A DNA stretch of 64,000 nucleotides from Smithella sp. (GCA_049517435.1 JBEKRZ010000001.1:409-64408), one strand, 5' to 3'. Shown: positions 5,941 to 62,498, counted from the first letter of the stretch. Program-made: numbers and translations. Notes: a model not told the origin generated them from the letters alone.

Positions 5941-6081
5941 ATTTATTGTTGAAACTCCAATTCCGAAAGCGTAGCGCAGCGGAATTGGTAAGTTGAACAA
6001 TCACGCGCAGCGGTGGGTTTAATACTCAACAGCTTGCTGCGGTATCTGTTTCCGAAGCTTGCTTTGGGGTTCATACCGGTG
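5941..6081 (-). repeat. Modular hairpin repeat (BIME/REP-like family), copy 1. It overlaps the nadB stop codon.
   Basis: It runs from TTTATTGTTGAAACTCC to GGGGTTCATACCGGTGA. It contains the hairpin CCAATTCCG-(AAAGCGTAGCGCAG)-CGGAATTGG. It is homologous to the copies at 24534, 53101 and 62359. Confidence 0.85.
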
Positions 6082-7672
6082 ACTCTTTGACAATAATAGT
6101 GTCTTTTTTAAATTCATCGCATGTGTCGGGATAATCAATATTATAGTGTAGACCACGGCTTTCTTTTCTCAGAGAAGCGCTCCGGACAATTAATCGAGCT
6201 ACTGTTGTAATATTGCGCAGTTCAATAAGATCTTTTGTGACTTTGAAGTTCCAGTAATATTCATCAATCTCTCTCTGGATAAGTTCAATTCTGCGGGTCG
6301 CTCTTGCCAATCTTTTGTTCGAACGGACAATTCCGACGTAATTCCACATGCATCTTCTTATTTCATCCCAGTTATGTGTGACAACCACGCTGTCATCGCT
6401 TTCCGTTGTTCCGCTGGAATCCCACGGAGCAATGGAGGCTTCATTGTATTTTATTTTATTAAAGTCGCGGGAAATTTCCATATAGACACGATGCGAATAG
6501 ACAACAGCTTCCAGTAAAGAGTTGCTGGCCAGACGGTTTGCTCCATGCAATCCGGTGCACGATACTTCACCGCAGGCAAAAAGATTGGCAAGGGATGTCT
6601 TGCCGTAATGATCGACCAAAACTCCGCCACAAATGTAATGAGCAGCCGGTGCGATAGGAATGGGTTGTGAGGTAATGTCGATACCGTATTCCAGGCATTT
6701 ATTATAAATATTGGGAAAGCGTTTGATCAGAAAATCGCGGTCGCGGTGTGTGATATCCAGCAGAACATATTCATCTCCGGATTGTTTAATTTCCGTATCG
6801 ATTGCTTTGGCGACAATATCCCGGGGTGCAAGACTTTTCATGTGATGATATTTGTCCATAAAAGTTGATCCGTCTTTTAATTTGAGAATTCCTCCTTCAC
6901 CGCGCACGGCTTCGCTGATAAGAAAAGCTTTGGCGGCAGGATGATAAAGACAGGTGGGATGAAACTGGATGAATTCCATATTCGAAATTTGTGCGCCTGC
7001 GCGATATGCCATGGCCAGGCCGTCTCCTGTCGCAATATCAGGATTTGTTGTAATGAGATAAACCTTTCCCGCTCCACCGGTGCATAAAATTGTATATTTC
7101 GCGATGTAAGTATGAATTTCACTTTTATCTATATCCAGAACGTAAGCTCCTCGGCAATACCCGAGTTTATCGAGAGCTTCTCTTTCTATGATCAGATCAA
7201 TGCCGATGTGATTTTCGTAAATTGTAACATTTTCCAGATGAGATACTTTTTCATTCAGCGCCCGCTCAATTTCCTGACCGGTGAAGTCTTTAGCGTGTAA
7301 AACCCGCCGGCGATTGTGGCCTCCTTCACGGCCAAGATCGTAAAGATTGGGTTGTGTTTCCGATTTTGTAAAATTTACGCCCCATTCTATTAGTTCTTGA
7401 ATTCTGGGGGGGGCTTCTTTGACGATGAATTCGACCACATCTTTCTTACAAAGACCGGCGCCGCAAATCAAGGTATCCTGAATATGTTCTTCAAAGCTGT
7501 CTGTTTGATCGGTAACAGCGGCTATTCCGCCTTGAGCGTAATTTGTATTTGATTCGGTTTTTTCTTTTTTGGTTACGATAGCGACACTGCCGAGAGTCGA
7601 AACTTTAATTGCCAGACTTAATCCCGCAATGCCGCTGCCCAAAATTAAAAAATCTGTCTTAAATTCCATCAC
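6071..7672 (-). CDS. nadB: L-aspartate oxidase.
   Basis: It has an FAD-binding N-terminus (DFLILGSGIAGLSLA) and the succinate DH/fumarate reductase flavoprotein fold, at a length typical of NadB. GTG start. Confidence 0.92.
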   Translation of the reverse strand: MMEFKTDFLILGSGIAGLSLAIKVSTLGSVAIVTKKEKTESNTNYAQGGIAAVTDQTDSFEEHIQDTLICGAGLCKKDVVEFIVKEAPPRIQELIEWGVNFTKSETQPNLYDLGREGGHNRRRVLHAKDFTGQEIERALNEKVSHLENVTIYENHIGIDLIIEREALDKLGYCRGAYVLDIDKSEIHTYIAKYTILCTGGAGKVYLITTNPDIATGDGLAMAYRAGAQISNMEFIQFHPTCLYHPAAKAFLISEAVRGEGGILKLKDGSTFMDKYHHMKSLAPRDIVAKAIDTEIKQSGDEYVLLDITHRDRDFLIKRFPNIYNKCLEYGIDITSQPIPIAPAAHYICGGVLVDHYGKTSLANLFACGEVSCTGLHGANRLASNSLLEAVVYSHRVYMEISRDFNKIKYNEASIAPWDSSGTTESDDSVVVTHNWDEIRRCMWNYVGIVRSNKRLARATRRIELIQREIDEYYWNFKVTKDLIELRNITTVARLIVRSASLRKESRGLHYNIDYPDTCDEFKKDTIIVKESPV

Positions 7673-7760
7673 GTTTTCCCGTCAAATTAAGCTGATAAAA
7701 GTTTGTTTACAAATCGTCATTGCTTTTATATAGAGATTTATAATTTTTAGCAAAGAGAAA

Positions 7761-8774
7761 ATGAAAGCAGGATTTATAATGCTAGTTCTTGGAATTGAAT
7801 CATCATGTGATGAAACAGCAGCAGCAGTAATCAGCAATGGAAAGATGTGTTCTAATGTTATTGCTTCGCAAATAGCGGTTCATTCTCCATATGGCGGAGT
7901 TGTGCCCGAAATTGCCTCGCGCAAACATATTGAGGCGATCAATCCGGTATTGAAGCAGGCATTAAATGACGCCAATGTGACACTCCGGGAAATAGAAGGT
8001 ATTGCTGTAACTCGCGGTCCCGGTTTGATCGGATCTCTTTTAATCGGTTTATCAACGGCCAAGGCTCTTGCTTATGCTTTAGATATTCCTTTCGTGGGTG
8101 TCAATCATATAGAAGGGCATATAGCCGCGGCATTTCTTGCTGAAAAAGCACCGTCATTTCCTTTTATAGCTTTAGTTGTTTCCGGTGGCCATACAAATAT
8201 TTACCTGGTAAAGGATTATCACAATTTTCTATTGCTTGGTCAGACGCGCGATGATGCCGCCGGAGAAGCATTTGATAAAGGGGCCAAACTTCTTAATCTT
8301 GGTTATCCTGGTGGTGTCGTGATTGATAAAATGTCAAAAAATGGCAATCCGCAGGCATTAGTTTTTCCTCGGGCAATGAAGGATTCACCTGATTTCAGCT
8401 TCAGCGGTTTGAAAACGTCTTTGCTGATAATGTTGAAAAAACGCGGTTGCAATTTTGCGGAAAGTCAACTGCCTGATGTAGCGGCCAGCTATCAGGAAGC
8501 GATAGTAGACGTGCTGGTAGAAAAAACAATTAAAGTAACAGAAGATAATGGCATTAATAGGATAGTCGTCTGCGGCGGAGTAGCGGCCAATGGCAGGTTG
8601 CGTGAGAGGTTTACAGAGGCGACAACAACTCGCAATATGGAATTATTTATTCCCCCGGTTATATTATGTACGGATAATGCGGCAATGATTGCGGCAATTG
8701 GCGAAATTATGCTGAAAAACGGCCGAAGAGATTCGCTGGATTTAAATGCTGTGTCCCGCTGGCCTATAGCGTAG
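7761..8774 (+). CDS. tsaD: tRNA N6-adenosine threonylcarbamoyltransferase.
   Basis: It has LGIESSCDETAAAV, HIEGH and a Kae1/Gcp fold. The likely true start is the ATG at 7779 (MLVLGIESS). Confidence 0.93.
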   Translation: MKAGFIMLVLGIESSCDETAAAVISNGKMCSNVIASQIAVHSPYGGVVPEIASRKHIEAINPVLKQALNDANVTLREIEGIAVTRGPGLIGSLLIGLSTAKALAYALDIPFVGVNHIEGHIAAAFLAEKAPSFPFIALVVSGGHTNIYLVKDYHNFLLLGQTRDDAAGEAFDKGAKLLNLGYPGGVVIDKMSKNGNPQALVFPRAMKDSPDFSFSGLKTSLLIMLKKRGCNFAESQLPDVAASYQEAIVDVLVEKTIKVTEDNGINRIVVCGGVAANGRLRERFTEATTTRNMELFIPPVILCTDNAAMIAAIGEIMLKNGRRDSLDLNAVSRWPIA

Positions 8775-8811
8775 ACTTAATCTTAATCTTTTCTACACGA
8801 GAGAGATAATC

Positions 8812-9657
8812 ATGAATTCACCTAAGGAAATAATCCGTCACTACGCTATTAAACCACGCAAAAGTCTGGGACAATCATTCTTGATGGAGCAAAGCGTCAT
8901 CAGAAAAATTTCCGCAATAGCGCAGGTTACAAAAAATGATATTGTTGTGGAAATTGGAGCGGGAATTGGTATCTTGACGGAAGAGTTAGCACAGAATGCC
9001 GCAAAGCTTATTGCCGTTGAACTGGATGATAAATTAGTTGAAGTATTGAAAGATAAGTTATTGAAATATAATAATGTGCAAATATATTCCGGTGATATTT
9101 TGAAGTTTGATTTCGAAGCCATTTATAGGGGCGGGCAGCAGAAAATTAAAGTTATCGGCAATGTTCCATATAATATTTCCTCTCCGATATTATTTCATTT
9201 ATTGTCTTTCCGGAAAGTTATAGATTCCTTTGTCTTTATGCTGCAAAAAGAAGTAATTCAGCGACTGGTAGCATCCCCTGGGGGTAAGGATTATGGAGTG
9301 CCTTCCGTGATTTTACAAATGTTTGCTACAGTAGAAAAAGTTTTAGATGTTCCAGGCGGTTGTTTTTATCCCCCTCCCAAAGTAGAATCGTCAGTAATGA
9401 GAGGATTTTTTCGGGAAAGGCCTTTAGTGGAACTCGCTGATGAAGAGTTTTTTATAAGATTAGTTAGAGATTCTTTTGCGCAACGCCGGAAAATGCTGAT
9501 TAACAATTTAAAAAAATCGAAATTGCTGGAAGGAGTTTCAGGATCGTTTTTAAATGAAGTGCTAAGAATGGCCGGAATTGATGGCACACGGAGAAGTGAG
9601 ACACTCTCCATCGAAGAATTTGGATATCTAAGCAATCTTCTGAAAGGGAAGCAATAA
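8812..9657 (+). CDS. rsmA: 16S rRNA (adenine1518/1519-N6)-dimethyltransferase.
   Basis: It has SLGQSFL, a SAM-binding VEIGAGIGILT, and NVPYNISSPI. Confidence 0.92.
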   Translation: MNSPKEIIRHYAIKPRKSLGQSFLMEQSVIRKISAIAQVTKNDIVVEIGAGIGILTEELAQNAAKLIAVELDDKLVEVLKDKLLKYNNVQIYSGDILKFDFEAIYRGGQQKIKVIGNVPYNISSPILFHLLSFRKVIDSFVFMLQKEVIQRLVASPGGKDYGVPSVILQMFATVEKVLDVPGGCFYPPPKVESSVMRGFFRERPLVELADEEFFIRLVRDSFAQRRKMLINNLKKSKLLEGVSGSFLNEVLRMAGIDGTRRSETLSIEEFGYLSNLLKGKQ

Positions 9658-9737
9658 GGGAAACAAGATTTAAATGAGTATATAATGAAATTAATATCAT
9701 TCTTTCTTATCAGGCAACAAATTCAGTTACTGTTAAA

Positions 9738-11099
9738 ATGGACATTATGAGTGAAAAAATTAAAAATAAATACTTGTATATTCAGACATTTGGTTGTCAA
9801 ATGAACGTTCACGATTCGGAACAGATGGCGGCTTTGCTAGCCGGTAGCGGTTACAAACTAACCGACAATATCAAGCTGGCTGATTTAATTCTGCTCAACA
9901 CTTGCTCCATCAGGGAGAAAGCGGCACATAAAGTCTATAGTAAACTGGGAAGGATCAGCAAGCTAAAAGAACAAAATCCGGAATTGATTATTGGTGTGGG
10001 CGGTTGTTTGGCGCAGCATTTGGGAACAAAATTTCATAAAAAAGTGGGGTATCTGGACTTTGTTTTTGGTACGCACAATATTCATCGTTTGCCTCAAATG
10101 GTTGCCTCTGTCCGGAAGAAAAGGAGAAAAATTACCGAAATTGATTTTCACAAGTCTTTAAATTCCATCGGTATTTTTGCTCCACCGCAAAGCGGCGCGG
10201 TCAGTGTTTTTGTAACGATTATGCAAGGGTGCAATAATTTCTGCGCCTACTGCGTGGTTCCTTATCTGCGCGGACCGGAGATGAGCAGACCGCCTGATGA
10301 TATAATTGAGGAAATAAAAGAGCTTGCAGATTATGGCATCAGAGAAGTTACTCTTTTGGGACAAAACGTTAATTCCTATGGCAAAACACTGGCTAATGGA
10401 TTGAATTTTGCGGCTTTGATTAAAAAAATCGGCAAAATTTCTGGTATCCAACGAATCAGATTTACTACATCACATCCGCGTGACCTCTCTGATGAATTGA
10501 TCCGCTGTTTTGCCGAAGAAGAGAAATTATGCGAGCATATTCATCTGCCGGTGCAATCAGGATCAAACCGGATATTGGCATTAATGAACAGGGGCTACAC
10601 AGTAGAAGAATACATGAAAAAAGTTGATCATTTACGTAAATTGAATTCGCAGATAAGCATTACTTCGGACATTATAGTCGGCTTTCCGGGAGAAACACAA
10701 AATGATTATCAAGAAACCATTGACATGATGGAAAAAATCAGGTTTGATTCTACGTTTTCATTTATGTATTCTGAAAGAAAAGGGACTGCGGCGCAAAAGT
10801 TAGAGGGAAAAGTTGAAGAATCCGAGAAGGCAAGAAGGCTCGAACAACTGCAGATTCTACAGGATCAGCATACACTGGAAAAAAACACAGCTTTGGAAAA
10901 TAGCCGACAGGAATTATTAGTTGAAGGGGAAAGCAGGAATTCTGAGAATGATTTAATGGGAAGAACCAGTTCCTGGAGAATTGTCAATTTTAAAGGTGAA
11001 TTGGAATTGATCGGCAAATTGGTGGATGTGAAAATATCAAAAGCTTATTTACATTCGTTAAGAGGAAAATTGATTAAGGAGGTTGGTAATGTTAATTGA
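9738..11099 (+). CDS. miaB: tRNA-2-methylthio-N6-dimethylallyladenosine synthase (radical SAM methylthiotransferase).
   Basis: It has a UPF0004 domain (TFGCQMNVHDSE), a radical SAM CNNFCAYC motif, and a C-terminal TRAM domain. Confidence 0.92.
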   Translation: MDIMSEKIKNKYLYIQTFGCQMNVHDSEQMAALLAGSGYKLTDNIKLADLILLNTCSIREKAAHKVYSKLGRISKLKEQNPELIIGVGGCLAQHLGTKFHKKVGYLDFVFGTHNIHRLPQMVASVRKKRRKITEIDFHKSLNSIGIFAPPQSGAVSVFVTIMQGCNNFCAYCVVPYLRGPEMSRPPDDIIEEIKELADYGIREVTLLGQNVNSYGKTLANGLNFAALIKKIGKISGIQRIRFTTSHPRDLSDELIRCFAEEEKLCEHIHLPVQSGSNRILALMNRGYTVEEYMKKVDHLRKLNSQISITSDIIVGFPGETQNDYQETIDMMEKIRFDSTFSFMYSERKGTAAQKLEGKVEESEKARRLEQLQILQDQHTLEKNTALENSRQELLVEGESRNSENDLMGRTSSWRIVNFKGELELIGKLVDVKISKAYLHSLRGKLIKEVGNVN

Positions 11100-11589
11100 A
11101 ATGAAAGTTTCGGGATTGACCATTGATCCTATTACCAATACGCCCATCGTAATATTGAAAGATATGCAGGAGAGTAAAGCCATCCCGATCTGGATAGGTT
11201 TGTTTGAAGCCAGTGCTATTGCTACGGAACTGGGGAAAATTATTTTTCCCCGGCCGATGACCCATGATTTGTTTAACGAATTTTTGAAATCTTTAAACGT
11301 GACTGTAAATAGAATTGAGATTGTGGATATTCGCAGCAATACTTTTTTTGCTAATATTTATTTAACCAGGGAAGGGCAAGATTTTACGATTGATGCTCGT
11401 CCCAGTGATGCTATTGCTATAGCGCTACGTGCACATGCGCCGATATTTGTCGATGAAGAGGTCATTGAAAAATCGCGTAATGTTGATTTTGGGATTAAAC
11501 TCAGTGATTTAGATAAATTAAAAGATGATAAAATTAAAGAATTTCTGGAAAATCTTTCGATGGAAGATTTCGGTAAGTATAAGATGTAA
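11083..11589 (+). CDS. Bifunctional nuclease (BFN/DUF151) family protein with a UVR-like C-terminus.
   Basis: It has DPITNTPIVILKD, RPMTHDL and ARPSDAIALAL motifs. It overlaps the miaB stop, which suggests translational coupling. Confidence 0.75.
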   Translation: MVMLIEMKVSGLTIDPITNTPIVILKDMQESKAIPIWIGLFEASAIATELGKIIFPRPMTHDLFNEFLKSLNVTVNRIEIVDIRSNTFFANIYLTREGQDFTIDARPSDAIAIALRAHAPIFVDEEVIEKSRNVDFGIKLSDLDKLKDDKIKEFLENLSMEDFGKYKM

Positions 11590-11590
11590 T

Positions 11591-11760
11591 GAGTCCCAAG
11601 TTTCAGAAGCGTAGCGCACTGAAATTTGCTTGACGAATTATCCCCGAAGCGGAGTGGAGTGGGATTTGAGTCCCAAGTTTCAGAAGCGTAGCGCACTGAA
11701 ATTTGCTTGACGAATTATCCCCGAAGCGGAGTGGAGTGGGATTTGAGCCCCAAGTTTCAG
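11591..11760 (-). repeat. Tandem array (2.2 copies, 77-nt period) of modular hairpin repeat units.
   Basis: The unit GAGTCCCAAGTTTCAGAAGCGTAGCGCACTGAAATTTGCTTGACGAATTATCCCCGAAGCGGAGTGGAGTGGGATTT starts at 11591, 11668 and 11745 (the last copy is truncated). Confidence 0.9.
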
Positions 11761-11799
11761 AAGTTAAGTTAAGTTAAGTTAAGTTAAGTTAAGTTAAGT
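11761..11799. repeat. Pentanucleotide microsatellite (AAGTT), about 7.8 copies.
   Basis: The sequence reads AAGTTAAGTTAAGTTAAGTTAAGTTAAGTTAAGTTAAGT, directly abutting the 77-nt array and about 40 nt upstream of the xerC ATG. Confidence 0.95.
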
Positions 11800-11840
11800 G
11801 GCACTATCGTTATGTCTGATAACTAGCTGGTATAAATATT

Positions 11841-12758
11841 ATGGGAAACATAATTCAAGATTTTAAAATTTATTTGGAAGTGGAAAGAAATGTTTCTGCG
11901 CATACGCGAGTAGCTTATATTGCCGATATTCAGGAATTCGCCCGCTTCCTGCATAATAACAATTTTATAAAAAGCCAGTATGAAATAATTAACGTGGAGC
12001 CGGAAAATATTCGGGAATATTTAAGCTACCTGTATAGCCAAAAGGTAAAAAAAGTTACGGTTAACCGCAAGGTATCGTCACTGAGAGCTTTTTATAAATA
12101 TGTGTTACGTACCGGTAAAATTAAAAATAATCCGGCAGAAATGATCCAAACTTTAAAAACAGAAAAATATATGCCGACTTTTCTTTCTGTTGATGAAATG
12201 TTTGAGCTTCTAAAAGTACGGGATGGGAATTCAGCTTTGGGTTTGCGTAATCGTGCTATGTTGGAAATATTTTATTCTTCAGGATTGCGTCTCAGTGAAT
12301 TAGCCGGATTGGATTTAATTGATCTTGATTTTAATCAAAAACTCGTTAAGGTGAGAGGTAAAGGAAGAAAAGAAAGGATAGCTCCCATTGGCGGACCAGC
12401 CATAAAAGCTGTTCAGGAATATTTAGAAAAGATCGGAGATATAAGAAAAGATACAAATAGTGATATTTTTAAAAAACCATTATTTTTAAATGCCCGGGGT
12501 GAAAGGATAACGACAAGAAGTATTGCCCGTATAGTTAATGAAATAACCAGCAAAAGCGGTATTGGACGGAAAATCAGTCCGCATGCCCTGAGACACAGTT
12601 TTGCCACACATCTCTTAAACGCCGGAGCTGATTTGCGTTCGATTCAGGAATTACTGGGGCATGAAAGTCTTTCGACGACGCAAAAATATACAGCGGTAAA
12701 TATTAATCGCATGATGGAAATTTACGATAAAGCCCATCCACGAAATAGGAAGAGTTGA
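11841..12758 (+). CDS. xerC: Site-specific tyrosine recombinase XerC/XerD family.
   Basis: It has HALRHSFATHLL and LLGHESLSTTQKYTAV motifs. Its position upstream of hslVU mirrors the codV/xerC-hslV-hslU arrangement. Confidence 0.8.
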   Translation: MGNIIQDFKIYLEVERNVSAHTRVAYIADIQEFARFLHNNNFIKSQYEIINVEPENIREYLSYLYSQKVKKVTVNRKVSSLRAFYKYVLRTGKIKNNPAEMIQTLKTEKYMPTFLSVDEMFELLKVRDGNSALGLRNRAMLEIFYSSGLRLSELAGLDLIDLDFNQKLVKVRGKGRKERIAPIGGPAIKAVQEYLEKIGDIRKDTNSDIFKKPLFLNARGERITTRSIARIVNEITSKSGIGRKISPHALRHSFATHLLNAGADLRSIQELLGHESLSTTQKYTAVNINRMMEIYDKAHPRNRKS

Positions 12759-12785
12759 TAGCCGGGTTTTATTTGAGGAGAAAAA

Positions 12786-13370: not shown

Positions 13371-13373
13371 AGT

Positions 13374-14768: not shown

Positions 14769-14790
14769 AAAAGAAAGTTATATTTGAACT

Positions 14791-14866
14791 TTAATCCCGA
14801 TACGCTTCGCTATCGGGATTAATTCGACTAAAAATTTTTACTTCTCCCGCAATCCTGCGGGATTGA
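14791..14866 (+). repeat. Short member of the modular hairpin repeat family, downstream of hslU.
   Basis: It contains the hairpin AATCCCGATA-(CGCTTCGC)-TATCGGGATT followed by TAATTCGAC, and a second hairpin CCCGCA-ATCC-TGCGGG. The modules are shared with 23401 and 21873. Confidence 0.6.
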
Positions 14867-14887
14867 AAAATTAAGTCTCATTAATAA

Positions 14888-20999: not shown

Positions 21000-21872
21000 A
21001 TGTTTAAGGGAGCAATGGTCGCTATTGTTACACCTTTTAAAAACGATCAGGTTGATGAGAACGCTTTGCGCGAGCTCATTGAATTTCAAATTGCCAATGG
21101 AACGGACGCTATTGTTCCTTGCGGCACTACCGGCGAATCGGCGACTCTTACCCATGAAGAACACGACCGGGTTATTGAAATTACCATTGACGCCGTAAAA
21201 AAAAGAGTGCCGGTTATTGCCGGCACAGGATCAAACAATACTGCCGAAGCTTTGCGTTTAACCAAACATGCCTACGAAGCCGGCGCCGATGGAACTCTCA
21301 TCGTCTGTCCATATTATAACCGTCCTACTCAAGAGGGGCTTTATCAGCATTTTAAGACTATTGCCGAAAGCGTTCCTATTCCGATAATACCATATAATAT
21401 CCCCAGCCGTACCGGTGTGAATCTTATGCCGGGAATGGTAGCTAAGCTGGCAAAAATAAAAAATATCGTTGGCATTAAAGAAGCATCCGGCTCTATCACT
21501 CAAATGAGTGAAATTATTAATCTATGCGATAATGATTTTGCTGTCTTATCCGGCGACGATATTTTCACTTTGCCTTTAATGGCGATTGGCGGCGCTGGTG
21601 TTATTTCTACTATCTCTAATGTGGCGCCGGCGGATATGGCAGGACTTATAGATGCGTTTGCCGCCGGTGATATGGTCAGAGCGAAAGCTCTCCATCATAA
21701 GATGAGCGCATTGATCGACGCGCTTTTTATCGAAGTTAATCCAATTCCGGTTAAAGCGGCATTGGCGCTGATGGGTAAAATAGAGTACGAATATAGATTA
21801 CCGCTTTGTAAAATGGCTGAGGCTAATTTTGAAAAGCTAAAGAACGTAATGGTTAATTATGGTTTGATTTAA
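21000..21872 (+). CDS. dapA: 4-hydroxy-tetrahydrodipicolinate synthase.
   Basis: It has GTTGESATLTHEEH, and IVGIKEASG containing the Schiff-base lysine. Confidence 0.94.
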   Translation: MFKGAMVAIVTPFKNDQVDENALRELIEFQIANGTDAIVPCGTTGESATLTHEEHDRVIEITIDAVKKRVPVIAGTGSNNTAEALRLTKHAYEAGADGTLIVCPYYNRPTQEGLYQHFKTIAESVPIPIIPYNIPSRTGVNLMPGMVAKLAKIKNIVGIKEASGSITQMSEIINLCDNDFAVLSGDDIFTLPLMAIGGAGVISTISNVAPADMAGLIDAFAAGDMVRAKALHHKMSALIDALFIEVNPIPVKAALALMGKIEYEYRLPLCKMAEANFEKLKNVMVNYGLI

Positions 21873-22052
21873 TGTGCTGTTTTGCAGAATTGTTCGCACT
21901 GCAAGCGTCAGTGCACTTTGTTGTAGTCCCACTTAGCTTCGCATGTGGGATAATTCATCCAGCAAGTTTCAGCGCGCTTCGCTTCTGAAATTTGGGACTC
22001 ATTACAACTTACAGATATTACTGTGCTGCGCTTGTAATATCTGAGTTTCATT
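21873..22052 (+). repeat. Modular hairpin repeat, filling the dapA-dapB spacer.
   Basis: The segment ...GGGATAATTCATCCAGCAAGTTTCAGCGCGCTTCGCTTCTGAAATTTGGGACTCATTACAACTTACAGATATTACTGTGCTGCGCTTGTAATATCTGAGTTTCAT is near-identical to 23451-23558. Confidence 0.85.
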
Positions 22053-22076
22053 TAAATAATTTAAGGAGATGATTTT

Positions 22077-22889
22077 ATGGTTAAAGCCGTCGTTACCGGA
22101 GCTGGTGGAAGAATGGGTGGCAAAATTATCAGCCTCATTTCCACTACGGAAGGTATCAATGTTGTAGCAGCAGTAGAAATAGCAAGGCACCCCATTGTCG
22201 GCCGTGATATAGGTCAAGGGCTGGGATTGGGTAAAACGGGTATTTTGGTTTGCGACAAATTAATCGATTGTATTGATCAGGCAGATGTTGTTATCGACTT
22301 TACAAATCATGAGACCTCTCTTAATTATTTAAAAATAGCCAACGAAAAAAATCGCGCCATTGTTATCGGCTCCACCGGATTTACTCCTGATGAAATGAAA
22401 AAAATTAAAGAATTGGCCAAAAACACACGCTGTGTATTGACTCCCAACATGAGCGTTGGCGTAAATGTGATGTTAAAAGTTCTGGAATATTGTGCGGGGG
22501 TTCTTAAAGATGATTATGATGTCGAAATTATTGAAGCTCACCATCATTTAAAAAAAGATGCTCCCAGCGGAACGGCAATGCAAATGGCGAAAGTTATCTC
22601 TGATAAATTGGGGCGCAATATGGAGGAGACCGTAGTTTATTCGCGACGAGGTTTGATTGGTGAGAGAACTAAAAAAGAAATAGGGATACAAACAATTCGC
22701 GCCGGTGATATTGTAGGTGATCATACGGTCATCTTTGGCGGAATCGGAGAGAGGCTGGAATTCACTCATCGTGCCCACAATCGCGACAATTTTGCCAAAG
22801 GAGCAATTCGCGCAGCTCAGTGGATTGTCAATCAGGAAAACGGTCTGTATGATATGCAAGATGTTTTAGGATTAAGGGATAAAAATTAA
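22077..22889 (+). CDS. dapB: 4-hydroxy-tetrahydrodipicolinate reductase.
   Basis: It has GAGGRMG for NAD(P) binding and EAHHHLKKDAPSGTA. Confidence 0.94.
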   Translation: MVKAVVTGAGGRMGGKIISLISTTEGINVVAAVEIARHPIVGRDIGQGLGLGKTGILVCDKLIDCIDQADVVIDFTNHETSLNYLKIANEKNRAIVIGSTGFTPDEMKKIKELAKNTRCVLTPNMSVGVNVMLKVLEYCAGVLKDDYDVEIIEAHHHLKKDAPSGTAMQMAKVISDKLGRNMEETVVYSRRGLIGERTKKEIGIQTIRAGDIVGDHTVIFGGIGERLEFTHRAHNRDNFAKGAIRAAQWIVNQENGLYDMQDVLGLRDKN

Positions 22890-22908
22890 AAAAAGGTTTT
22901 AATAAGAT

Positions 22909-23412
22909 TTGAACGGCATTATCTGTTATATTGGGGTTGGTTCTAATTTAGGCAACGCTTTAAAAAACTGCCAATATGCCGTTGAAAGTCTTTCCCGATC
23001 CAAAGGAATTGAGATAACAAGATTTTCGTCTTTTTATAAAACTGAGCCTGTAGGTATTGAGAACCAAAATTTGTTCATAAATGCAGTTATCGAAATTAAG
23101 ACGGTTCTTTCTGCCCATAACCTCTTCCAGTCGTTACAAAACATTGAAAAGAATATGGGCCGCGAAAGGGAAGTTAAAGGCGGCCCGAGAATTATCGATC
23201 TTGACCTCCTTTTTTACGGGCAGGAAGTCATTCAAGACGCTGATTTAATAGTACCGCATACGGAAATTCAGAAACGGCGCTTTATTTTGGAACCACTATG
23301 CGAAATAGCTTCTTATTTTATCCATCCTGCTTTTGGTGTTTCCATTCGCGGGCTGAAAGACAGGTTAAGTGATAATAAAATAGTCGAAATGATCAAAGAA
23401 TCACGGGTATAA
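22909..23412 (+). CDS. folK: 2-amino-4-hydroxy-6-hydroxymethyldihydropteridine pyrophosphokinase.
   Basis: It has the HPPK pattern (IGVGSNLG, RIIDLDLL, PHTEIQKRRFILEPL) and a TTG start. The last three codons and the stop lie inside the repeat terminus. Confidence 0.88.
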   Translation: MNGIICYIGVGSNLGNALKNCQYAVESLSRSKGIEITRFSSFYKTEPVGIENQNLFINAVIEIKTVLSAHNLFQSLQNIEKNMGREREVKGGPRIIDLDLLFYGQEVIQDADLIVPHTEIQKRRFILEPLCEIASYFIHPAFGVSIRGLKDRLSDNKIVEMIKESRV

Positions 23413-23583
23413 ACCCCAAAGCAAGCTGCGGGGTATTAAACCCTCCGCTTAGCGGGATAATTCGTCCAGCAAATTTCAGCGTGCTTCGCTTCTGAAATTT
23501 GGGACTCATTACAACTTACAGATATTACTGCACTGTGCTTGTAATATCTGAGTTTCATTAGAAATTGGAGTTTGAACAATAAA
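23401..23583 (+). repeat. Modular hairpin repeat, long composite copy.
   Basis: It starts TCACGGGTATAAACCCCAAAGCAAGC and ends GGAGTTTGAACAATAAA, with internal modules shared with 21873 and 11591. Confidence 0.9.
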
Positions 23584-23609
23584 AAATCAACCAGTAGCAG
23601 GATATTATT

Positions 23610-23870
23610 ATGTCTCGGTTTTTTGTATTTATAATATTGATTTATTTGGTGTATAGGATAATCAAAAGTATCGGGCAAACAAAGCCGGTAAAAAATGAAA
23701 ATTATCAATTTAAAGCATCGCCAGTTGGGGGAGAAGACTTAGTTGAAGATCCTGTTTGTCATACTTATGTGCCTTTGAGTCAAGCGTTTAAAAAAGAAAT
23801 ATCTGGTAATGACTATTACTTTTGCAGTAAGCTATGCAGTGAAAAATATGTATCAGGAAAAAATAAGTAA
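23610..23870 (+). CDS. Small membrane-anchored YHS/TRASH-domain protein.
   Basis: It has an N-terminal TM helix and a C-terminal DPVCHTYV...YYFCSKLCSEKY, a YHS-type metal-binding motif. Confidence 0.65.
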   Translation: MSRFFVFIILIYLVYRIIKSIGQTKPVKNENYQFKASPVGGEDLVEDPVCHTYVPLSQAFKKEISGNDYYFCSKLCSEKYVSGKNK

Positions 23871-23888
23871 ACACAATTAGGAGAATTT

Positions 23889-24545
23889 ATGAAGTTTTTT
23901 ATTGATACTGCTAATATTGAAGAAATCAAGGAAGGACTTAAGCTCGGAATGGTGGACGGTGTTACTACCAATCCATCGCTTATTGCTAAAGAGAAAAAAG
24001 GTTTTGACGTTGTTATTAAAGATATACTGAAAAATGTAAAAGGGCCGGTAAGTTTGGAAGTAATGAGTATGGAGGCAAAAGCAATGTTTGCCGAAGGCAA
24101 GAAACTTGCACGTTTGGGAAATAATGTTGTCATTAAAGTGCCTCTTTGCACTGAGGGATTGAAGGCAACAAGAATGTTTGCCGAGGCGGGTATTGATGTA
24201 AATCAGACTTTAATATTCTCTCCTTTGCAGGCGCTGATGGCGGCGAAAGCAGGCGCACGTTATGTCAGCCCGTTTGTCGGCCGTTTGGACGATATCGCTC
24301 ATGATGGTATGGAACTGGTGGAACAAATTATTACTATCTACGAAAATTATGCTTATGAAACAGAAGTCATTGTGGCCAGCATCCGCCATCCTCGGCATGT
24401 TTTGGATGCGGCTTTAATGGGCGCAGATATAGCTACAATTCCTTTTAAAGTAATAGCTCAATTGGTTCAACATCCACTAACGGAAAAAGGAATAGAAACG
24501 TTTTTAAAAGATTGGGAAAAAGTGCCCAAAAAATCACGGGTATGA
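23889..24545 (+). CDS. tal: Transaldolase (short type) / fructose-6-phosphate aldolase family.
   Basis: It has [23 protein letters not shown] and IKVP, and a length of about 218 aa typical of subfamily 3B. The last codons and the stop lie in the repeat terminus. Confidence 0.9.
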
Positions 24546-24649
24546 ACCCCAAAGCAAGCTGCGGGGTATTAACCCCTCCGCTTCGCGGGATTGTTCAACT
24601 TACCAATTCCGCTCCGCTTCGCTTTCGGAATTGGAGTTTCAACAATAAA
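24534..24649 (+). repeat. Modular hairpin repeat, short copy with both conserved termini.
   Basis: TCACGGGTATGAACCCCAAAGCAAGCTGCGGGGTATTAACCCCTCCGCTTCGCGGGATTGTTCAACTTACCAATTCCGCTCCGCTTCGCTTTCGGAATTGGAGTTTCAACAATAAA. Confidence 0.9.
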
Positions 24650-24701
24650 TTTAATCAGCGTTTTGATATTTTTTTGAAATAAATACAACAGGCGTTAAAT
24701 A

Positions 24702-25565: not shown

Positions 25566-25641
25566 GGCGGCATAGCCAAGTGGCTAAGGCAGCGGTCTGC
25601 AAAACCGTTATTCCCCGGTTCAAGTCCGGGTGCCGCCTCCA
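25566..25641 (+). tRNA. tRNA-Cys (GCA). This is the attachment site of the downstream island.
   Basis: GGCGGCATAGCCAAGTGGCTAAGGCAGCGGTCTGCAAAACCGTTATTCCCCGGTTCAAGTCCGGGTGCCGCCTCCA. The anticodon loop is CTGCAAA. Confidence 0.92.
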
Positions 25642-25705
25642 AGGATTTCAAGGAGTTGCAAGGTCATGGTACTTGCAGCCCTTTCTTTTTTGTGAAGTAA
25701 TTGTG

Positions 25706-49566: not shown

Positions 49567-49618
49567 CAAATAGTAATCCTCAATTCTGAAAACTACCCTT
49601 TATTGAAACTTTGTAGGT
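49567..49618 (+). repeat. Direct repeat R1, flanking the TPR GT-C gene.
   Basis: CAAATAGTAATCCTCAATTCTGAAAACTACCCTTTATTGAAACTTTGTAGGT is roughly 80% identical by eye to 51813-51864. Confidence 0.75.
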
Positions 49619-49670
49619 GAAAGAAATAATTCTGACGGTTCGCAAATCGGATTTTTATTTCTTCCTTCCT

Positions 49671-49820: not shown

Positions 49821-49901
49821 CCATTAGAATCGATAACAAAATATAGGATATATAGGGGATTGGGTTATTCTGTTTAATTGTTACGTGGAGATTCTCTATT
49901 A

Positions 49902-51785
49902 ATGAAGAAAAAATACATTTACCTTGTCGTAATATTTTTAATAGTTGCTTCTTTTATTGCGTATTGCCGAATTTTAGGGAATGGATTTATTAATTTTGAT
50001 GACATACAATACATTACCAAAAACAATCATATTAAATCAGGCATTAATCCTGAAAGTATTAAATGGGCGTTTAGTACTGTTGATCTATACTACTGGCAGC
50101 CACTTACTTGGCTTTCGCACATGTTGGATTGGAATTTGTTTAAGGATAATGCCGGTGGCTACCACTTAATCAGTTTGCTTCTGCATATAGGCAGTGTTCT
50201 CCTTCTATTTTTCTTTTTAAACAGGACGACAAATAATATTTGGCCTTCGGCCTTCGTTGCGGCTCTTTTTGCCCTGCATCCCCTGCGGGTTGAATCCGTA
50301 GCCTGGGCCGCCGAGCGCAAAGACGTTTTAAGTATGTTTTTCGGATTAGCGAGTATTTATGCCTATGCCTGTTATGTCGAAAATTTTAAAATTTCCCAAT
50401 ATATTATTTGTTTAATATTATTTGCGTTGAGTTTGATGGCTAAACCAATGCTGGTCACTTTGCCTTTTGTTTTGTTGCTTCTTGATTATTGGCCGCTGGG
50501 CCGATGGCAAAAGGTTCTCACTCCAGTAGAAGTGCCGATAGATGCTACTGAAAGAGCACCGAAGAAAAAAGCTAAAAAGCGTAAAGCCGATTCTATTAAC
50601 GAGAAAAAAAAATTCATACCGCTGACGAGCAGTTATCAAATAATTCGCTCTCTTTTATGGGAAAAGGCGCCTTTTATTTTCTTAACCATCATTTCAAGTA
50701 TTGTGACTATCTGGGGTCAAAATAAATTCGGCGTGGTTGTTTCCATGGAAAATCTGCCCTTTTCTGCACGTGTTCAGAACGCGGTCATTTCTTATGTTTC
50801 TTATTTAGGAAAAACTTTTTGGCCGGTTGACCTGGCCATATTTTATCCATATGAATACACTTTTCCGTTCTGGAAAATCTTAGCTTCTTGCTTCATCTTT
50901 ATTGGCATTACCATTGTTGTGATTTATGCTATTAAGAAATTGCCTTTTTTATTCGTCGGTTGGTTTTTGTATTTGGGAACTCTGATTCCCGTAATTGGGT
51001 TCGTGCAGGTCGCCACACAATCGATAGCCGACCGCTTTACTTATCTACCCTCTATCGGCATTGCTGTTATGCTGGCCTGGGGTATTCCGTCTTTGATTAA
51101 GAATGAAGAAACACGCAAAAATATTTTGTTACCGGTAGGAATATTCGTCTTAGTTATCTTATCCGCTTTAACGTGGCATCAATGCGGTTATTGGAAAAAC
51201 AGTATTGAACTTTTCAGTCACACTTTGCAGGTAACAAAAGATAATGCTCAGGCGCATAACAATTTTGGCCTTGCCCTGTTTGTCGAAGGAAAAATAGAAG
51301 AGGCTATTTTTCATTATAACGAGGCCATCTGTATAAAACCGGATCGCTTATATTATTCAAACAGGGGGGATGCTTACCGTAAGTTAGGCCAGTATCAACG
51401 TGCCATCGAGGACTATAATGAAGCCATCCGCCTGAAACCGGATTTCAATGCCTACTACGACAGGGGGAATGCTTATGAGGATCTCGGTCAGCATCAACAG
51501 GCCATCGAAGATTATAATGAAGCCATCCGCCTGAAACCGGATTTCAATGCCTACTACAACAGAGGGAATGCTTACACTAAGTTAAACCAGTATCAACTTG
51601 CCTTGAAGGACTATAATGAAGTCATCCGCCTGAATCCGGATTATGCCGAAGCCTACAACAACCTGGGAGTTGTCTATTTTATACAGGGCAACAAAAATCT
51701 TGGCTGTCGTAATGCGCAAAAAGCATGTGAATTAGGAAAGTGCAAAATATTAGAAATGGTCACAGGCAAGGGGGACTGCCGTTAA
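49902..51785 (+). CDS. GT-C fold membrane glycosyltransferase fused to C-terminal TPR repeats (TMTC/PMT_2-like).
   Basis: The N-terminal multi-TM domain begins with an FDD motif (NGFINFDDIQYI). The C-terminus has 5-6 TPR units with repeated AIEDYNEAIRLKPDFNAYY. The ATG at 49902 is preferred over the TTG at 49878. Confidence 0.8.
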   Translation: MKKKYIYLVVIFLIVASFIAYCRILGNGFINFDDIQYITKNNHIKSGINPESIKWAFSTVDLYYWQPLTWLSHMLDWNLFKDNAGGYHLISLLLHIGSVLLLFFFLNRTTNNIWPSAFVAALFALHPLRVESVAWAAERKDVLSMFFGLASIYAYACYVENFKISQYIICLILFALSLMAKPMLVTLPFVLLLLDYWPLGRWQKVLTPVEVPIDATERAPKKKAKKRKADSINEKKKFIPLTSSYQIIRSLLWEKAPFIFLTIISSIVTIWGQNKFGVVVSMENLPFSARVQNAVISYVSYLGKTFWPVDLAIFYPYEYTFPFWKILASCFIFIGITIVVIYAIKKLPFLFVGWFLYLGTLIPVIGFVQVATQSIADRFTYLPSIGIAVMLAWGIPSLIKNEETRKNILLPVGIFVLVILSALTWHQCGYWKNSIELFSHTLQVTKDNAQAHNNFGLALFVEGKIEEAIFHYNEAICIKPDRLYYSNRGDAYRKLGQYQRAIEDYNEAIRLKPDFNAYYDRGNAYEDLGQHQQAIEDYNEAIRLKPDFNAYYNRGNAYTKLNQYQLALKDYNEVIRLNPDYAEAYNNLGVVYFIQGNKNLGCRNAQKACELGKCKILEMVTGKGDCR

Positions 51786-51812: not shown

Positions 51813-51864
51813 CAAATGGTAATCCTCAATTCTAACAATATCTCTTTACTGAAACTTTGTAGGT
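51813..51864 (+). repeat. Direct repeat R2, flanking the TPR GT-C gene.
   Basis: CAAATGGTAATCCTCAATTCTAACAATATCTCTTTACTGAAACTTTGTAGGT. It is followed at 51883-51899 by TGTGAAGTAATTGTGAA, which is also present at 25691-25707 next to attL. Confidence 0.75.
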
Positions 51865-51912
51865 ATAAGATTGATTTCAACTGTGAAGTAATTGTGAACC
51901 TAACAAAACAGA

Positions 51913-52019: not shown

Positions 52020-52065
52020 CTGCAAAACCGTTATTCCCCGGTTCAAGTCCGGGTGTCGCCTCCAA
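52020..52065 (+). repeat. attR: displaced copy of the tRNA-Cys 3' part (anticodon loop to CCA).
   Basis: CTGCAAAACCGTTATTCCCCGGTTCAAGTCCGGGTGTCGCCTCCAA has one mismatch to 25597-25642. Weaker similarity continues for about 20 nt, and both copies are followed by a hairpin and a T-run. Confidence 0.9.
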
Positions 52066-52190
52066 TGATATTTGAGGAGTTTACTTACTTTTTTATGAAA
52101 GTAACTCCTTTTTTTTGAGTAGAGTCCCATCAGGCAGGAACTGGATGCTCCTTATAATAGTGAGACCAAAGCTTCATAAACAAAGTGCAT

Positions 52191-52372
52191 AACCTGAAGA
52201 TCATCTACAACTGAAGCTTGCAGGTTGAATGAATGAAACTCAAATATTACAAACATCGTACCGCAATATTTGTAAGTTGAATTCATCCCGCTAAGCAGAG
52301 GATAACGCGACCTCTCGCGAGTTACGGCGCATTCCTTCCACGGTTGGAGCAGGGGGATTCCAAGTTGCGGGA
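52191..52372 (-). repeat. Degenerate modular hairpin repeat, just outside attR.
   Basis: It contains ATGAAACTCAAATATTACAAACATCGTACCGCAATATTTGTAAGTTGAA, the reverse-complement homologue of the module at 22006-22052, plus further short hairpins. Confidence 0.6.
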
Positions 52373-53100: not shown

Positions 53101-53197
53101 TTATTTGTGAAACTCCAATTCCGAAGCGGAGGGTATAATAACCCCGCAGCGTTATGCGAAACGTTTCCAAAGCTTGCTTCAGGGTTCATACCCGTGA
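53101..53197 (-). repeat. Modular hairpin repeat, short copy.
   Basis: TTATTTGTGAAACTCCAATTCCGAAGCGGAGGGTATAATAACCCCGCAGCG...CAAAGCTTGCTTCAGGGTTCATACCCGTGA. Confidence 0.85.
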
Positions 53198-53362
53198 TTT
53201 AATTCTTAACAACAGCTCTTTGAAAATTGAAAATAGGCAGATTACTTTTCCTTATTTAAGGGAAACCGTAAATTTTGCCTCCATATTTTTTTACTTGAAT
53301 ATTGTTAGTTTGAAAAAAAGCTTAATGTCGATACAAGTTAATACAATATTAATAGAAAGGAG

Positions 53363-54425: not shown

Positions 54426-54457
54426 GGCTCGGGAAAATAATTTTCCGAGCCTTTTTT
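54426..54457 (+). terminator. Intrinsic terminator after yacL.
   Basis: GGCTCGGGAAAATAATTTTCCGAGCC followed by TTTTTT. Confidence 0.7.
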
Positions 54458-54517
54458 ATGAACTATTTCTTTTTTAAATTAAAAATGGTATCAAAGATTT
54501 AGAGTAGGAATTAATTT

Positions 54518-57498: not shown

Positions 57499-57513
57499 AT
57501 CTGCCCCAAAATA

Positions 57514-59085: not shown

Positions 59086-59335
59086 AAATTTCTCCTCTTC
59101 ATCTTCTTTAATAAGACCAGCGCAAATTTAGCAGCGATAATTACTAAGTGTTCAATGTTAAAAAGAAATATTTTTAATTCAGGCCAATACTAGCGTTTTT
59201 AATAAAAACTGGCAAGAAAAAATGATGAAATTTGTCAAGAGCATTATTCGGGGAACAAGAAAACATAAAACTTCTTCTTTATTTTTTTTAATAAACCGAA
59301 TAAATTCGTAAGCAAGAAAAGAATCAGGGAATAAT

Positions 59336-60073: not shown

Positions 60074-60075
60074 AA

Positions 60076-60927: not shown

Positions 60928-61010
60928 TTCATTTGCAAGCTGTGGAGATGCGCTTACTATCGAATTCACGGACGAGAGCAAACATCGACACTGCCCTTTA
61001 TATTTTGTGG

Positions 61011-61571
61011 TCAAGAGTCCTTAAGTTCATACTGGAAATAAATATCATCATCGCCCGATGAAATACTCCTGACCTTTTTCGCAACAGTTTTCTTCCCGAA
61101 AATTTTGAGGACCTGCTGAAAGTAACCCATAATAAGGTACTCGAAGTAAGTATGTTTGATTGGAAGTCCGGTGATTTTGAAATGAACGATGTTGTTCTCG
61201 AACAGTGCGGTAGGTTTACCCTCGTCAAAATAGGTCGAGTAGAGTTTAGGCATGACCGACTCGACAAACTGCTTTATATCCTTTGTGAGCAGATAAGATT
61301 TGTACGGACCTTCTGGCGACACGGCAAATTTGGCGGCTGCCTTCCCAATCGTCACGTACTGCATCATATTGTTGTTGAAAAATTCCTTAATCATCTCGTC
61401 AAGAAAAAGGATGAATTTTTCCACCGGAATGGGGGTAACGGACATAATTACATTGCTGAAAAATTTGTCCTTTGCCGTCAGTTTGGGTATAAAGGAATTC
61501 CAGCGTTCCTCGCCGAAAGCTTCGATGAGATTAGTCTTTCCTGTAAGATAGACGATGCCTTTTACGTTCAT
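61011..61571 (-). CDS. H-NOX/V4R-clan-like (DUF2378-like) small soluble protein, tandem paralog 2.
   Basis: The start is re-set to the ATG at 61571 (MNVKG...), preceded by GGGAGG. The 186-aa protein is highly similar to 61625-62185. The family assignment rests only on overall pattern (N-terminal ...FGEERW..., C-terminal SSGDDDIYFQ). Confidence 0.7.
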   Translation of the reverse strand: MNVKGIVYLTGKTNLIEAFGEERWNSFIPKLTAKDKFFSNVIMSVTPIPVEKFILFLDEMIKEFFNNNMMQYVTIGKAAAKFAVSPEGPYKSYLLTKDIKQFVESVMPKLYSTYFDEGKPTALFENNIVHFKITGLPIKHTYFEYLIMGYFQQVLKIFGKKTVAKKVRSISSGDDDIYFQYELKDS

Positions 61572-61624
61572 ATTGAAACCTCCCAAGAATGCCTATGATA
61601 GATTAAACACTATATATTTTGTGG

Positions 61625-62185
61625 TCAAGAGTCCTTTAGTTCAAACTGGAAATAAATATCATCATCGCCCGATGAAATACTCCGGACCCGTTTCGCATCA
61701 GTTTTCTTCCCGAAAACACGGAGTGCCTGCTGAAAAAAACCCATAAGAAGGGACTCGAAGTTAAAATTTTTGATTGTAAGTCCGGTGATCTTGAGATGAA
61801 CGATGTTGTTCTCGAACCGTGTGGTAACTGCACCTCCGTCATAATAGGTCGACCAGAGTTTAGGCAGCCCCGACTCGACGAACTGCTTTATATCCTTTGT
61901 GAGCAGATAAGAGTGGTACAGGCCTCCCTGCGACAGGGCAAATTTGGCGGCTACCTTACCAAACATCAAGTATGAATTTTTGTCGTTGTTGAAGTATTCC
62001 TTAATCATTTCGTCAAGAAAAAGGATGAGTTTTTCAAGTGGAACGGGGGTAATGGACATGATCACATTGCTGAAAAATTTGTCCTTCGCCGCCAACTTGG
62101 CCATGAAGGAGTTCCAGCGTTCCTCGCCGAAAGCTTCGACGACAGTAGTCTTTCCTGTAAGATAAACAGTGCCTTTTACGTTCAT
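61625..62185 (-). CDS. H-NOX/V4R-clan-like (DUF2378-like) small soluble protein, tandem paralog 1.
   Basis: The start is re-set to the ATG at 62185, preceded by GGGAGG. It is 186 aa and offset exactly 614 nt from its paralog. Confidence 0.7.
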   Translation of the reverse strand: MNVKGTVYLTGKTTVVEAFGEERWNSFMAKLAAKDKFFSNVIMSITPVPLEKLILFLDEMIKEYFNNDKNSYLMFGKVAAKFALSQGGLYHSYLLTKDIKQFVESGLPKLWSTYYDGGAVTTRFENNIVHLKITGLTIKNFNFESLLMGFFQQALRVFGKKTDAKRVRSISSGDDDIYFQFELKDS

Positions 62186-62230
62186 ATCGAAACCTCCCAA
62201 GAACACCTAAGTAGATTAAATATAGCTTAT

Positions 62231-62259
62231 ATATTATTGTGTGTTGCATGAATATGCAA
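62231..62259 (-). promoter_or_regulatory. Candidate promoter with an overlapping palindromic operator for the paralog pair.
   Basis: On the minus strand: TTGCAT (62259-62254), then a 17-nt spacer, then TAATAT (62236-62231). The -35 lies inside the inverted repeat TTGCAT-GAAT-ATGCAA (62244-62259). Confidence 0.4.
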
Positions 62260-62297
62260 GTATAATATTTATTTTGCAGAAGAGGGTGGCCATTGAT

Positions 62298-62330
62298 AAA
62301 AAAGCTTTCCACCAACAGGCAGTGGAAAGC
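62298..62330 (-). terminator. Intrinsic terminator (minus strand), downstream of the SLOG-like gene and repeat.
   Basis: A 9-bp stem GCTTTCCAC / GTGGAAAGC with a 9-nt loop, followed on the minus strand by TTTTTT. Confidence 0.65.
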
Positions 62331-62358
62331 TCGGATAATCTAATTTCAATTTTCAGGG

Positions 62359-62498
62359 TTTATTGTGAAACTCCAATTCTGAAAGCGTAGCACAGCGGAA
62401 TTGGTAAGTTGAACAATCCCGCGCAGCGAAGGGTATAATACACTGCAGCTTGCTACGGAATCTGTTTCCAAAGCCTGCTTTAGGGTTCATACCCGTGA
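62359..62498 (-). repeat. Modular hairpin repeat, full-length copy.
   Basis: TTTATTGTGAAACTCCAATTCTGAAAGCGTAGCACAGCGGAATTGGTAAGTTGAACAATCCCGCGCAGCGAAGGGTATAATACACTGCAGCTTGCTACGGAATCTGTTTCCAAAGCCTGCTTTAGGGTTCATACCCGTGA. It is collinear with 5941-6081. Confidence 0.9.

Follow-up and report, generated by a model that had tools for sequence, protein, structure and literature searches.

What are the short hairpin repeats that occupy intergenic DNA at nine places in a 64,000-nt stretch of Smithella sp. DNA (the window, meaning the whole stretch analysed), and how did they come to lie there? A first-pass annotation of this DNA had noticed a dense family of modular hairpins, likened it to the REP/BIME elements (repetitive extragenic palindromes and the mosaics built from them) and left it unrecognised. 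We find a real and abundant repeat family that is apparently undescribed, and that is a variant of familiar selfish hairpin DNA. The nine loci probably belong to a non-autonomous, gene-less family of small mobile DNA with the target AAT^AA. Comparisons of alleles and copies show that insertion is specific for site and orientation, that empty alleles are seamless, that the target is asymmetric, that the ends lack terminal inverted repeats and that the hairpins are under selection.

Nine loci and their common architecture

All nine loci were inspected in sequence, and a repeat search of the window links them to one another in both orientations. A 26-nt sequence that marks one end of the element, TCACGGGTATGAACCCCAAAGCAAGC (the A end), occurs five times in the window at no more than 3 mismatches, versus 0.00 expected in shuffled sequence. 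A covariance model built on the generic hairpin module, and run with filters off over the entire window, gave 13 matches (E 2.6e-16 to 0.012), all within the nine loci. No match fell inside a gene and none inside the genomic island at 25566-52085, and the list of loci is therefore complete for this module type. The earlier description of nine loci that carry mosaics of the same modules in both orientations, dense in and confined to intergenic DNA and absent from the tRNA-Cys island, is thus borne out. The loci are as follows, with covariance scores in bits:

5942-6085, - strand: full composite element between convergent genes (71.9 bits)
11587-11763, - strand: tandem of a 77-nt unit, no A end (58.8 and 49.1 bits)
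14791-14886, + strand: related short unit between hslU and argB, no A end (37.4 and 20 bits)
21873-22055, + strand: chain of three hairpin modules between dapA and dapB, no A end
23399-23580, + strand: full composite element between folK (HPPK) and a YHS-domain gene; 179-nt insert plus the shared AAT
24532-24646, + strand: full composite element between a transaldolase-family gene (TAL) and pgsA; 112-nt insert plus the shared AAT (67.4 bits)
52150-52372, - strand: module chain upstream of carD, no A end (47.5 and 21.6 bits)
53101-53199, - strand: full-ended, internally deleted element after carD; 94-nt insert at 53106-53199
62360-62500, - strand: full composite element (66.9 bits)

Four copies lie on the + strand and five on the - strand, and eight of the nine adjoin the 3' end of a gene within a few bases. 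Conserved ends around a variable number of hairpins had been proposed for full copies. This holds for the five loci that have both ends (first annotated as starting at 5941, 23401, 24534, 53101 and 62359); the other four (11591, 14791, 21873 and 52191) have no A end and are chains of internal modules or related units. Two of the first-pass limits needed revision, in that the 52191 locus reaches left to ~52150 and the copy at 53101-53199 has both ends, its hairpin having been lost by internal deletion.

Oriented with the conserved TCACGG end first, a full element consists of AATCACGGGTATGAACCCCAAAGCAAGC (the A end), an optional TTTGGAAACAGATTCCGCAGCAAGC, TGCGGGGTATTAAACCCTCCGCTTCGCGGGAT, at least one big hairpin module and GGAGTTTCA(A)C (the Z end), after which comes AATAA(A). 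Elements are typically ~40-330 nt long and contain no genes; across the aligned copies, lengths go from 25 to at least 325 nt with constant ends, and a minimal copy consisting of A and Z ends is present in L027 (L numbers are our labels for matching sequences). The A end bears small hairpins, of which GGGT-ATGA-ACCC lies 6 nt from the terminus, and a 9-bp hairpin lies 8-10 nt from the Z terminus. The termini themselves, AATCACGGGTATGAACCC.. and ..CGGAATTGGAGTTTCAC, are dissimilar and form no terminal inverted repeats. Each big module comprises a 9-10-bp stem, a 12-14-nt loop and the tail RGNYTCA; the spacing of the 9-nt arms is exactly 14 nt in 111 of 145 units. Read on the opposite strand, the loops contain GCGNAGC (N = A in 66, T in 31, C in 28 and G in 10 of 135 loops), a motif that is also present in the small units CCGCGAAGCGG and ATCCC..GGGAT. 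Within any one locus the hairpins are all co-oriented, the covariance-model matches lying on a single strand.

For the analysis of stem pairing, 135 units were picked by the loop and tail pattern alone; 33 in which a mini-module is nested in the region of the 5' arm, and one with an N, were dropped, leaving 101. Paired cells make up 94.5% in these units, versus 73.3% in shuffled sets and 18-52% with slid partners. All nine stem pairs have changes on both sides (e.g., AU 56/CG 38, UA 62/CG 29 and AU 55/GC 30). Doubly changed cells number 192 versus 56 expected, and the covariation score is 0.602 (0.230 in shuffles), with none of 500 shuffles attaining 0.602; since the stems are a handful of amplified types, the independent covariation events are far fewer than the cells. 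The stems are under clear structural selection, and the first-pass proposal that structure rather than stem sequence is conserved stands.

The individual loci illustrate this architecture. In the element at 5942, the target TTTATT (5942-5947) is followed by the Z end from 5948 and the A end at 6057-6085. The elements at 53101 and 62360 start with TTATT targets at 53101-53105 and 62360-62364, and have their A ends at 53172-53199 and 62473-62500, respectively. Judged by its sequence, the shortness of the 53101 copy is explained by an apparent deletion between two loop motifs (CG|AAGCG). The tandem at 11587 begins on the TAA stop of open reading frame (ORF) 11083-11589 and consists of two identical 77-nt units (11590-11666 and 11667-11743) and a truncated third copy (11744-11763), each unit combining the hairpin CAAGTTTCAG/CTGAAATTTG (loop AAGCGTAGCGCA) with an ATCCC..GGGAT unit. 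A (TTAAG)x8 microsatellite at 11764-11800 abuts the truncated third copy, upstream of an xerC-like gene. The 14791 unit has the hairpins ATCCCGATA..TATCGGGAT (loop CGCTTCGC) and TCCCGCA..TGCGGGA, with the tail AGTCTCATTAATAAA. The 52150 chain has two big hairpins, one with a nested mini-module (AGATGATCTTCAGGTTAT), plus other small hairpins.

Insertion at AAT^AA and at stop codons

The boundaries of the element are sharp. On the A side, conservation among 108 copies starts abruptly at AATCACG; positions -7 to -1 are conserved at 83-96%, and beyond them the sequence is background. On the Z side, conservation runs through ..TTTCA(A)C(N) and then AAT and AA(A) (77-97%), with the remainder at background. 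Relatives were found via exact-protein look-ups of the neighbouring genes (88-100% nucleotide identity), and clean empty sites are present in close relatives or population alleles at four of the nine loci. The HPPK-YHS spacer is empty in L121, L122, L127 and L123 (..AAAGAATAAATAAT..) and filled in the window (..AAAG[AATCACG...TTTGAAC]AATAAAAAA..), where the insert is followed by AATAAA. The TAL-pgsA spacer is empty in L129, with flanks identical to those of the window (CCCAAAAAATAAATTTAATC; flank string CCCAAAAAATAAATTT), and filled in the window (CCCAAAAAAT[CACGG...CAACAAT]AAATTTAATC). Likewise, the carD-PIN spacer is empty in L120, L124 and L123 (CGCTTATT^TACTTC) and filled in the window and, with other interiors, in L121, L122 and L126. 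The empty-allele joints 23398>23578 and 24531>24644, both ambiguous by 3 letters, are found in metagenome DNA contigs, and metatranscriptome contigs also contain the empty carD allele. A metagenome allele without the 21873 stretch has the joint 21873>22055 with 16 other letters.

Empty and filled alleles together therefore demonstrate insertion at AAT^AA, in fixed orientation, with AAT at both junctions. Insertion is orientation-specific at 5'-AAT^AA(A)-3', i.e., (T)TTATT on the other strand, and the three nucleotides AAT are common to the target and one end of the element. The TAL-pgsA site is empty in L129 (96% identity in the flanking genes) and filled in L028 and L121 (93-96%), a pattern that requires either precise, seamless loss or repeated gain at this site.

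Occupied sites differ in what they hold. At the HPPK-YHS, TAL-pgsA and carD-PIN sites, copies in relatives keep their ends and differ in their interiors, and at the dapA-dapB site L129 likewise holds a different composite from that of the window. The window and L129 copies in the HPPK-YHS spacer both have the rare Z-end variant GTTTGAAC, with interiors that differ. Some copies have nested 20-nt mini-modules (..GTGACCTTTAGGTTAT..) in their loops that are absent from the copies of relatives.

Since TAA is part of the target, many insertions fall on a stop codon, and a frame bias at the A ends follows from an in-frame TAA in the target being a stop. In the HPPK and transaldolase-family genes, the displaced stop is replaced by the A-end sequence TCA CGG GTA TGA/TAA, encoding Ser-Arg-Val and a stop. 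HPPK (ORF 22909-23412) ends at the element's TAA at 23410-23412 and has 167 aa versus 164 in empty alleles; the transaldolase-family protein (ORF 23889-24545) ends at the element's TGA at 24543-24545 and has 218 aa versus 215. A third ORF in the window that ends in element codons, 6071-7672(-) with 533 aa, receives Ser-Pro-Val and a TGA stop (6071-6073) from the A end of the 5942 element. The A end of the 62360 element lies 6-7 bases from the stop (62507-62509) of ORF 62507-63082(-), the intervening bases being outside the element. Among the 25 ORFs across the family that have 80 codons or more and read into an A end, 19 terminate at its TGA. That the element supplies a stop three codons on could be either luck or adaptation. 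With TAA in the target and a stop in the A end, insertions at gene ends and in spacers survive, while those within genes are purged. The phantom Ser-Arg-Val and Ser-Pro-Val tails matter in practice, since annotation pipelines will report them as protein.

Distribution and genomic context

The family extends far beyond the window. A scan with the A-end pattern over one genome per prokaryote species found at least 114 stretches, where by our own calculation ~4 chance matches are expected (L005 and L048 look like such). Among the matches listed, nearly all come from Smithella, Smithellaceae, Syntrophaceae or "delta proteobacterium" metagenome-assembled genomes (MAGs), sampled from peat, fen, sediment and digesters. 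Five further matches are true relatives that share the A end and differ in their interiors: L088 and L091 (both labelled Bacteroidales), L092 (labelled Chitinophagaceae), L066 (labelled Planctomycetales; 470-kb contig) and L009, bearing in mind that MAG labels of short contigs can be wrong. L009 (CAZUDI010000099.1, 4640-4860; 68% G+C, labelled Bacteriovoracaceae) has an A end, G+C-rich hairpins and a CCCTCCGCTGCAAGCAGCGGGAAATTCG unit. From its sequence, this element looks like a composition-adapted relative of the family. In peat metagenome runs holding the strain, summed module depth is 12-75x that of unique flanks, a rough sign of high copy number.

The first-pass annotation had placed almost every copy immediately 3' of a gene. 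In the window this is true of eight of the nine loci; among 41 complete copies family-wide, 16 lie in co-oriented tandem spacers, 11 in anti-oriented tandem spacers, 8 in divergent promoter spacers and 6 in convergent ones. Metatranscriptome contigs run from carD into the element, reflecting either co-transcription with carD or contaminating DNA, as these RNA contigs are unstranded and from mixed communities.

No relative of the family was found in reference collections: blastn against plasmids and phages gave no match, the A end had 0 matches in viral contigs, and 15 matches of a Z-hairpin 16-mer in viral contigs were all chance, none fitting the model. In Rfam, only three transfer RNAs reached the gathering score in the window, and nothing matched over 21800-24700 at E up to 1, by which an Rfam family is ruled out. 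In the papers that were searched the family is not described either, in keeping with the earlier failure to recognise it.

The repeats also fragment assemblies: short-read contigs of the strain (L152 and others) begin and end inside the 11591 and 14791 loci, and an exact-protein look-up for hslV returned only short contigs that break at repeats. For the genes beside the 11591 and 62359 loci, such look-ups returned no record.

Other repeats in the window were noted in passing. A repeat of the tRNA-Cys 3' half (96%; 25597-25646 and 52020-52069) stands at each end of the 26.4-kb island; the 52150 chain lies just outside the right attachment (att) remnant. In L121, L122 and L127 the gene order is pgsA - tRNAs - carD without the island. 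Inside it, a 58-nt direct repeat (83%; 49567-49624 and 51813-51870) brackets a TPR-repeat gene (49878-51785). A 300-nt direct repeat (87%; 60996-61295 and 61610-61909) reflects two small paralogous ORFs that lie side by side on the - strand (61011-61586 and 61625-62206).

Origin of the family and comparison with known systems

What could move such elements? We propose that a strand- and structure-specific enzyme would act in trans, with selection on the element itself keeping the hairpins, and with interiors being quickly remodelled by deletion, exchange and nested insertion, helped by the common loop motif. A single-strand transposase of the HUH type, as for the palindrome-associated transposable elements (PATEs) of IS200/IS605, would fit the anatomy best; given a mobile family, we regard such a mechanism as a serious candidate, though at somewhat less than an even chance. 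A number of observations weigh against this proposal. A phmmer search with seeds for IS200, IS608 and YafM, covering every ORF of 70 aa or more, detected no Y1 transposase in ~1 Mb around 120 public-genome copies; its sole match (E 0.005) was spurious, being antisense to a glycosyltransferase-like gene. The 8-kb surroundings of ~120 A ends contained no long A..Z elements and no TnpB-like ORF abutting an A end, only truncated copies by ordinary genes. Viral contigs, plasmids and phages yielded neither an enzyme nor an autonomous copy, and scanning metagenomes for the A end of the Bacteroidales type turned up one match, a small element after cysK, and no autonomous copy. The end hairpins are unlike each other, at odds with the classical IS200/IS605 mechanism; stem mismatches carry no signal for the strand of folding (G.T versus A.C, 27 versus 32), a short variant of the A end confounding the same comparison in the A-end hairpins; no head-to-tail tandems of elements were seen; and AAT might be a 3-bp target-site duplication, which HUH Y1 elements do not make. 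Strong replication-strand bias is typical of IS608 and ISDra2, and none is visible here (four + and five - copies in core DNA of uniform positive GC skew, a small sample). Lastly, some copies may have a host function.

This last point can be taken further. The elements could serve the host in the manner of REP/BIME sequences, by stabilising mRNA 3' ends, modulating translation termination or binding a nucleoid protein or gyrase, with mobility being only their origin. REPs near stop codons affect translation and mRNA decay in E. coli, and the structural selection on stems, the position of eight of the nine window copies within a few bases of a gene 3' end and the metatranscriptome contigs running from carD into the element are all as this explanation would have it. 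However, there is no preference for transcription orientation (16 co- versus 11 anti-oriented tandem spacers), 8 of 41 copies sit in divergent promoter spacers, and both presence and interiors vary at the same site between strains of 93-96% identity, which is unexpected for a needed regulatory part. Nor is any family module followed by a T run. The hairpins lead into AGTTTCA or TAAGTTG, ruling out intrinsic terminators; a terminator scan reported one terminator-like site within the repeat loci (locus 21873), and it is not a family module. We therefore consider a host-serving role to be improbable as the main explanation. Lower still we place an ordinary MITE (a transposable element of miniature size with inverted repeats) that is moved by a DDE transposase (e.g., of the IS5/Harbinger type) and duplicates the 3 bp AAT. 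At all three clean empty sites the empty allele has a single AAT and the filled one has AAT flanking the insert on each side, just as a duplication would leave it. The ends, CACGGGTATGAAC.. and ..GGAGTTTCAC, are nevertheless not terminal inverted repeats (CAC is direct, not inverted), so that a MITE with such repeats is ruled out and only the 3-nt AAT ambiguity would fit duplication. In addition, the target is one-sided, with AA(A) after the Z end at 77-97% and the bases before the A-side AAT near background, and all copies have the same orientation relative to it. Of the 22 copies with a non-AAT triplet on the A side, 21 have a mismatched Z-side triplet, although ascertainment and later mutation could explain this.

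The least credible of the alternatives, and in our view very improbable, is that the hairpins are recombination sites (relatives of attC, or sites of tyrosine, serine or IS110-type recombinases) that pass through a circular intermediate with the 3-nt core ATT. A crossover core would leave just such a short stretch of identity between the target and one end of the element, and integron integrases do use folded single-strand hairpins, yet the predicted junction CAC-AAT-CAC (..CCCGTGATT|GTGAAACT..) is not an inverted-repeat core, and there is neither a cassette ORF nor an integrase beside the copies. The XerC-like gene at 11841-12758 is the usual xerC-hslVU gene, and the target information of only ~5-6 nt is far below that of IS110 bridge-RNA targets. 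Integron attC sites proper are ruled out, the ends having no GTTRRRY/RYYYAAC core and the copies lying between housekeeping genes (dapA-dapB-folK-tal-pgsA and carD). A bolder extension of the mobile-family explanation would place the elements in a superfamily of strand-specific mobile DNA that is built of hairpin modules, spans phyla, has the end AATCA-N2-3-GGTATGAACCCCAAAGCARGC as its defining feature and is moved by an enzyme class not yet linked to such elements; modules capped by the ultra-stable d(GCGNAGC) mini-hairpin would be exchanged or inserted singly, and the A end would have evolved its built-in stop, letting the element sit harmlessly on stop codons. That end is almost unchanged in Smithellaceae, Bacteroidales, Chitinophagaceae, Planctomycetales-labelled MAGs and the 68% G+C contig, and we regard the superfamily as speculative but worth stating, unlikely as it is on balance.

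Whichever enzyme is involved, the family is of consequence for the organisms that carry it. A large part of the intergenic DNA of Smithella-type syntrophs, key degraders of alkanes and fatty acids in peat, sediments and digesters, is occupied by these elements; they break short-read assemblies and may be taken for attC sites, terminators or regulatory RNAs. For the biology of mobile DNA, the family provides a hairpin element that is directional, has a defined 5-nt target and seamless empty alleles and brings its own stop, along with fast module turnover at fixed sites, and its end sequence, conserved across phyla, gives a handle for finding the mobilising enzyme and for testing d(GCGNAGC) mini-hairpins in vivo.

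Among known systems, PATEs are gene-less derivatives of IS200/IS605 elements, described in Haloquadratum (PMC3119063) and Geobacillus (PMC10055086). The Smithella elements are likewise small and gene-less, have no terminal inverted repeats and two different ends with subterminal hairpins, and occur as many intergenic copies in fixed orientation beside a short T-rich target (TTATT), with seamless empty alleles. Unlike for PATEs, no cognate tnpA/tnpB insertion sequence was found within the 8-kb surroundings of ~120 A ends, the hairpins at the two ends differ from each other, exchangeable modules form a variable chain between the ends, three bases are shared with the target, and the window copies have no replication-strand bias (4 + and 5 -, a small sample). 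In architecture, a further counterpart is the BOX element of Streptococcus pneumoniae, organised as boxA-boxB(n)-boxC. Both have conserved end modules, a variable internal number, an intergenic location, the capacity to form hairpins and no known mobilising enzyme. BOX belongs to another phylum, however, and the present family differs in having several stem types with one loop motif, a defined target and stop-codon landing.

Closest to the first-pass comparison are the REP, BIME and REPIN elements with their RAYT (TnpA_REP) transposases (PMC2817692, PMC3116915, PMC3479197). These too are abundant extragenic hairpins in mosaic clusters with compensated stems, often at gene 3' ends. By contrast, the family described here has no conserved GTAG/CGTC tag at the hairpin foot, and is co-oriented and directional, with distinct ends; no RAYT gene was seen in the ~1 Mb around 120 copies. 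The loop GTAG that had been read as a mark of REP elements is present only where N = T (31 of 135 loops) and sits in the loop instead of at the foot of the palindrome, while the co-oriented hairpins do not alternate as in BIMEs and REPINs. With GTAG not conserved and no inverted hairpin pairs, the REP/RAYT link is not supported.

The loop motif has a parallel of another kind: d(GCGNAGC) forms an extraordinarily stable mini-hairpin DNA in vitro (PMC13037366), and one strand of the big-hairpin loops, as of the small CCGCGAAGCGG units, holds the exact motif. It is known as a physico-chemical DNA motif and not as part of a mobile element, and its folding here is predicted from the sequence alone. 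Set beside these systems, stop-codon landing, modular turnover and an end sequence conserved across phyla are the unusual traits of the Smithella family.

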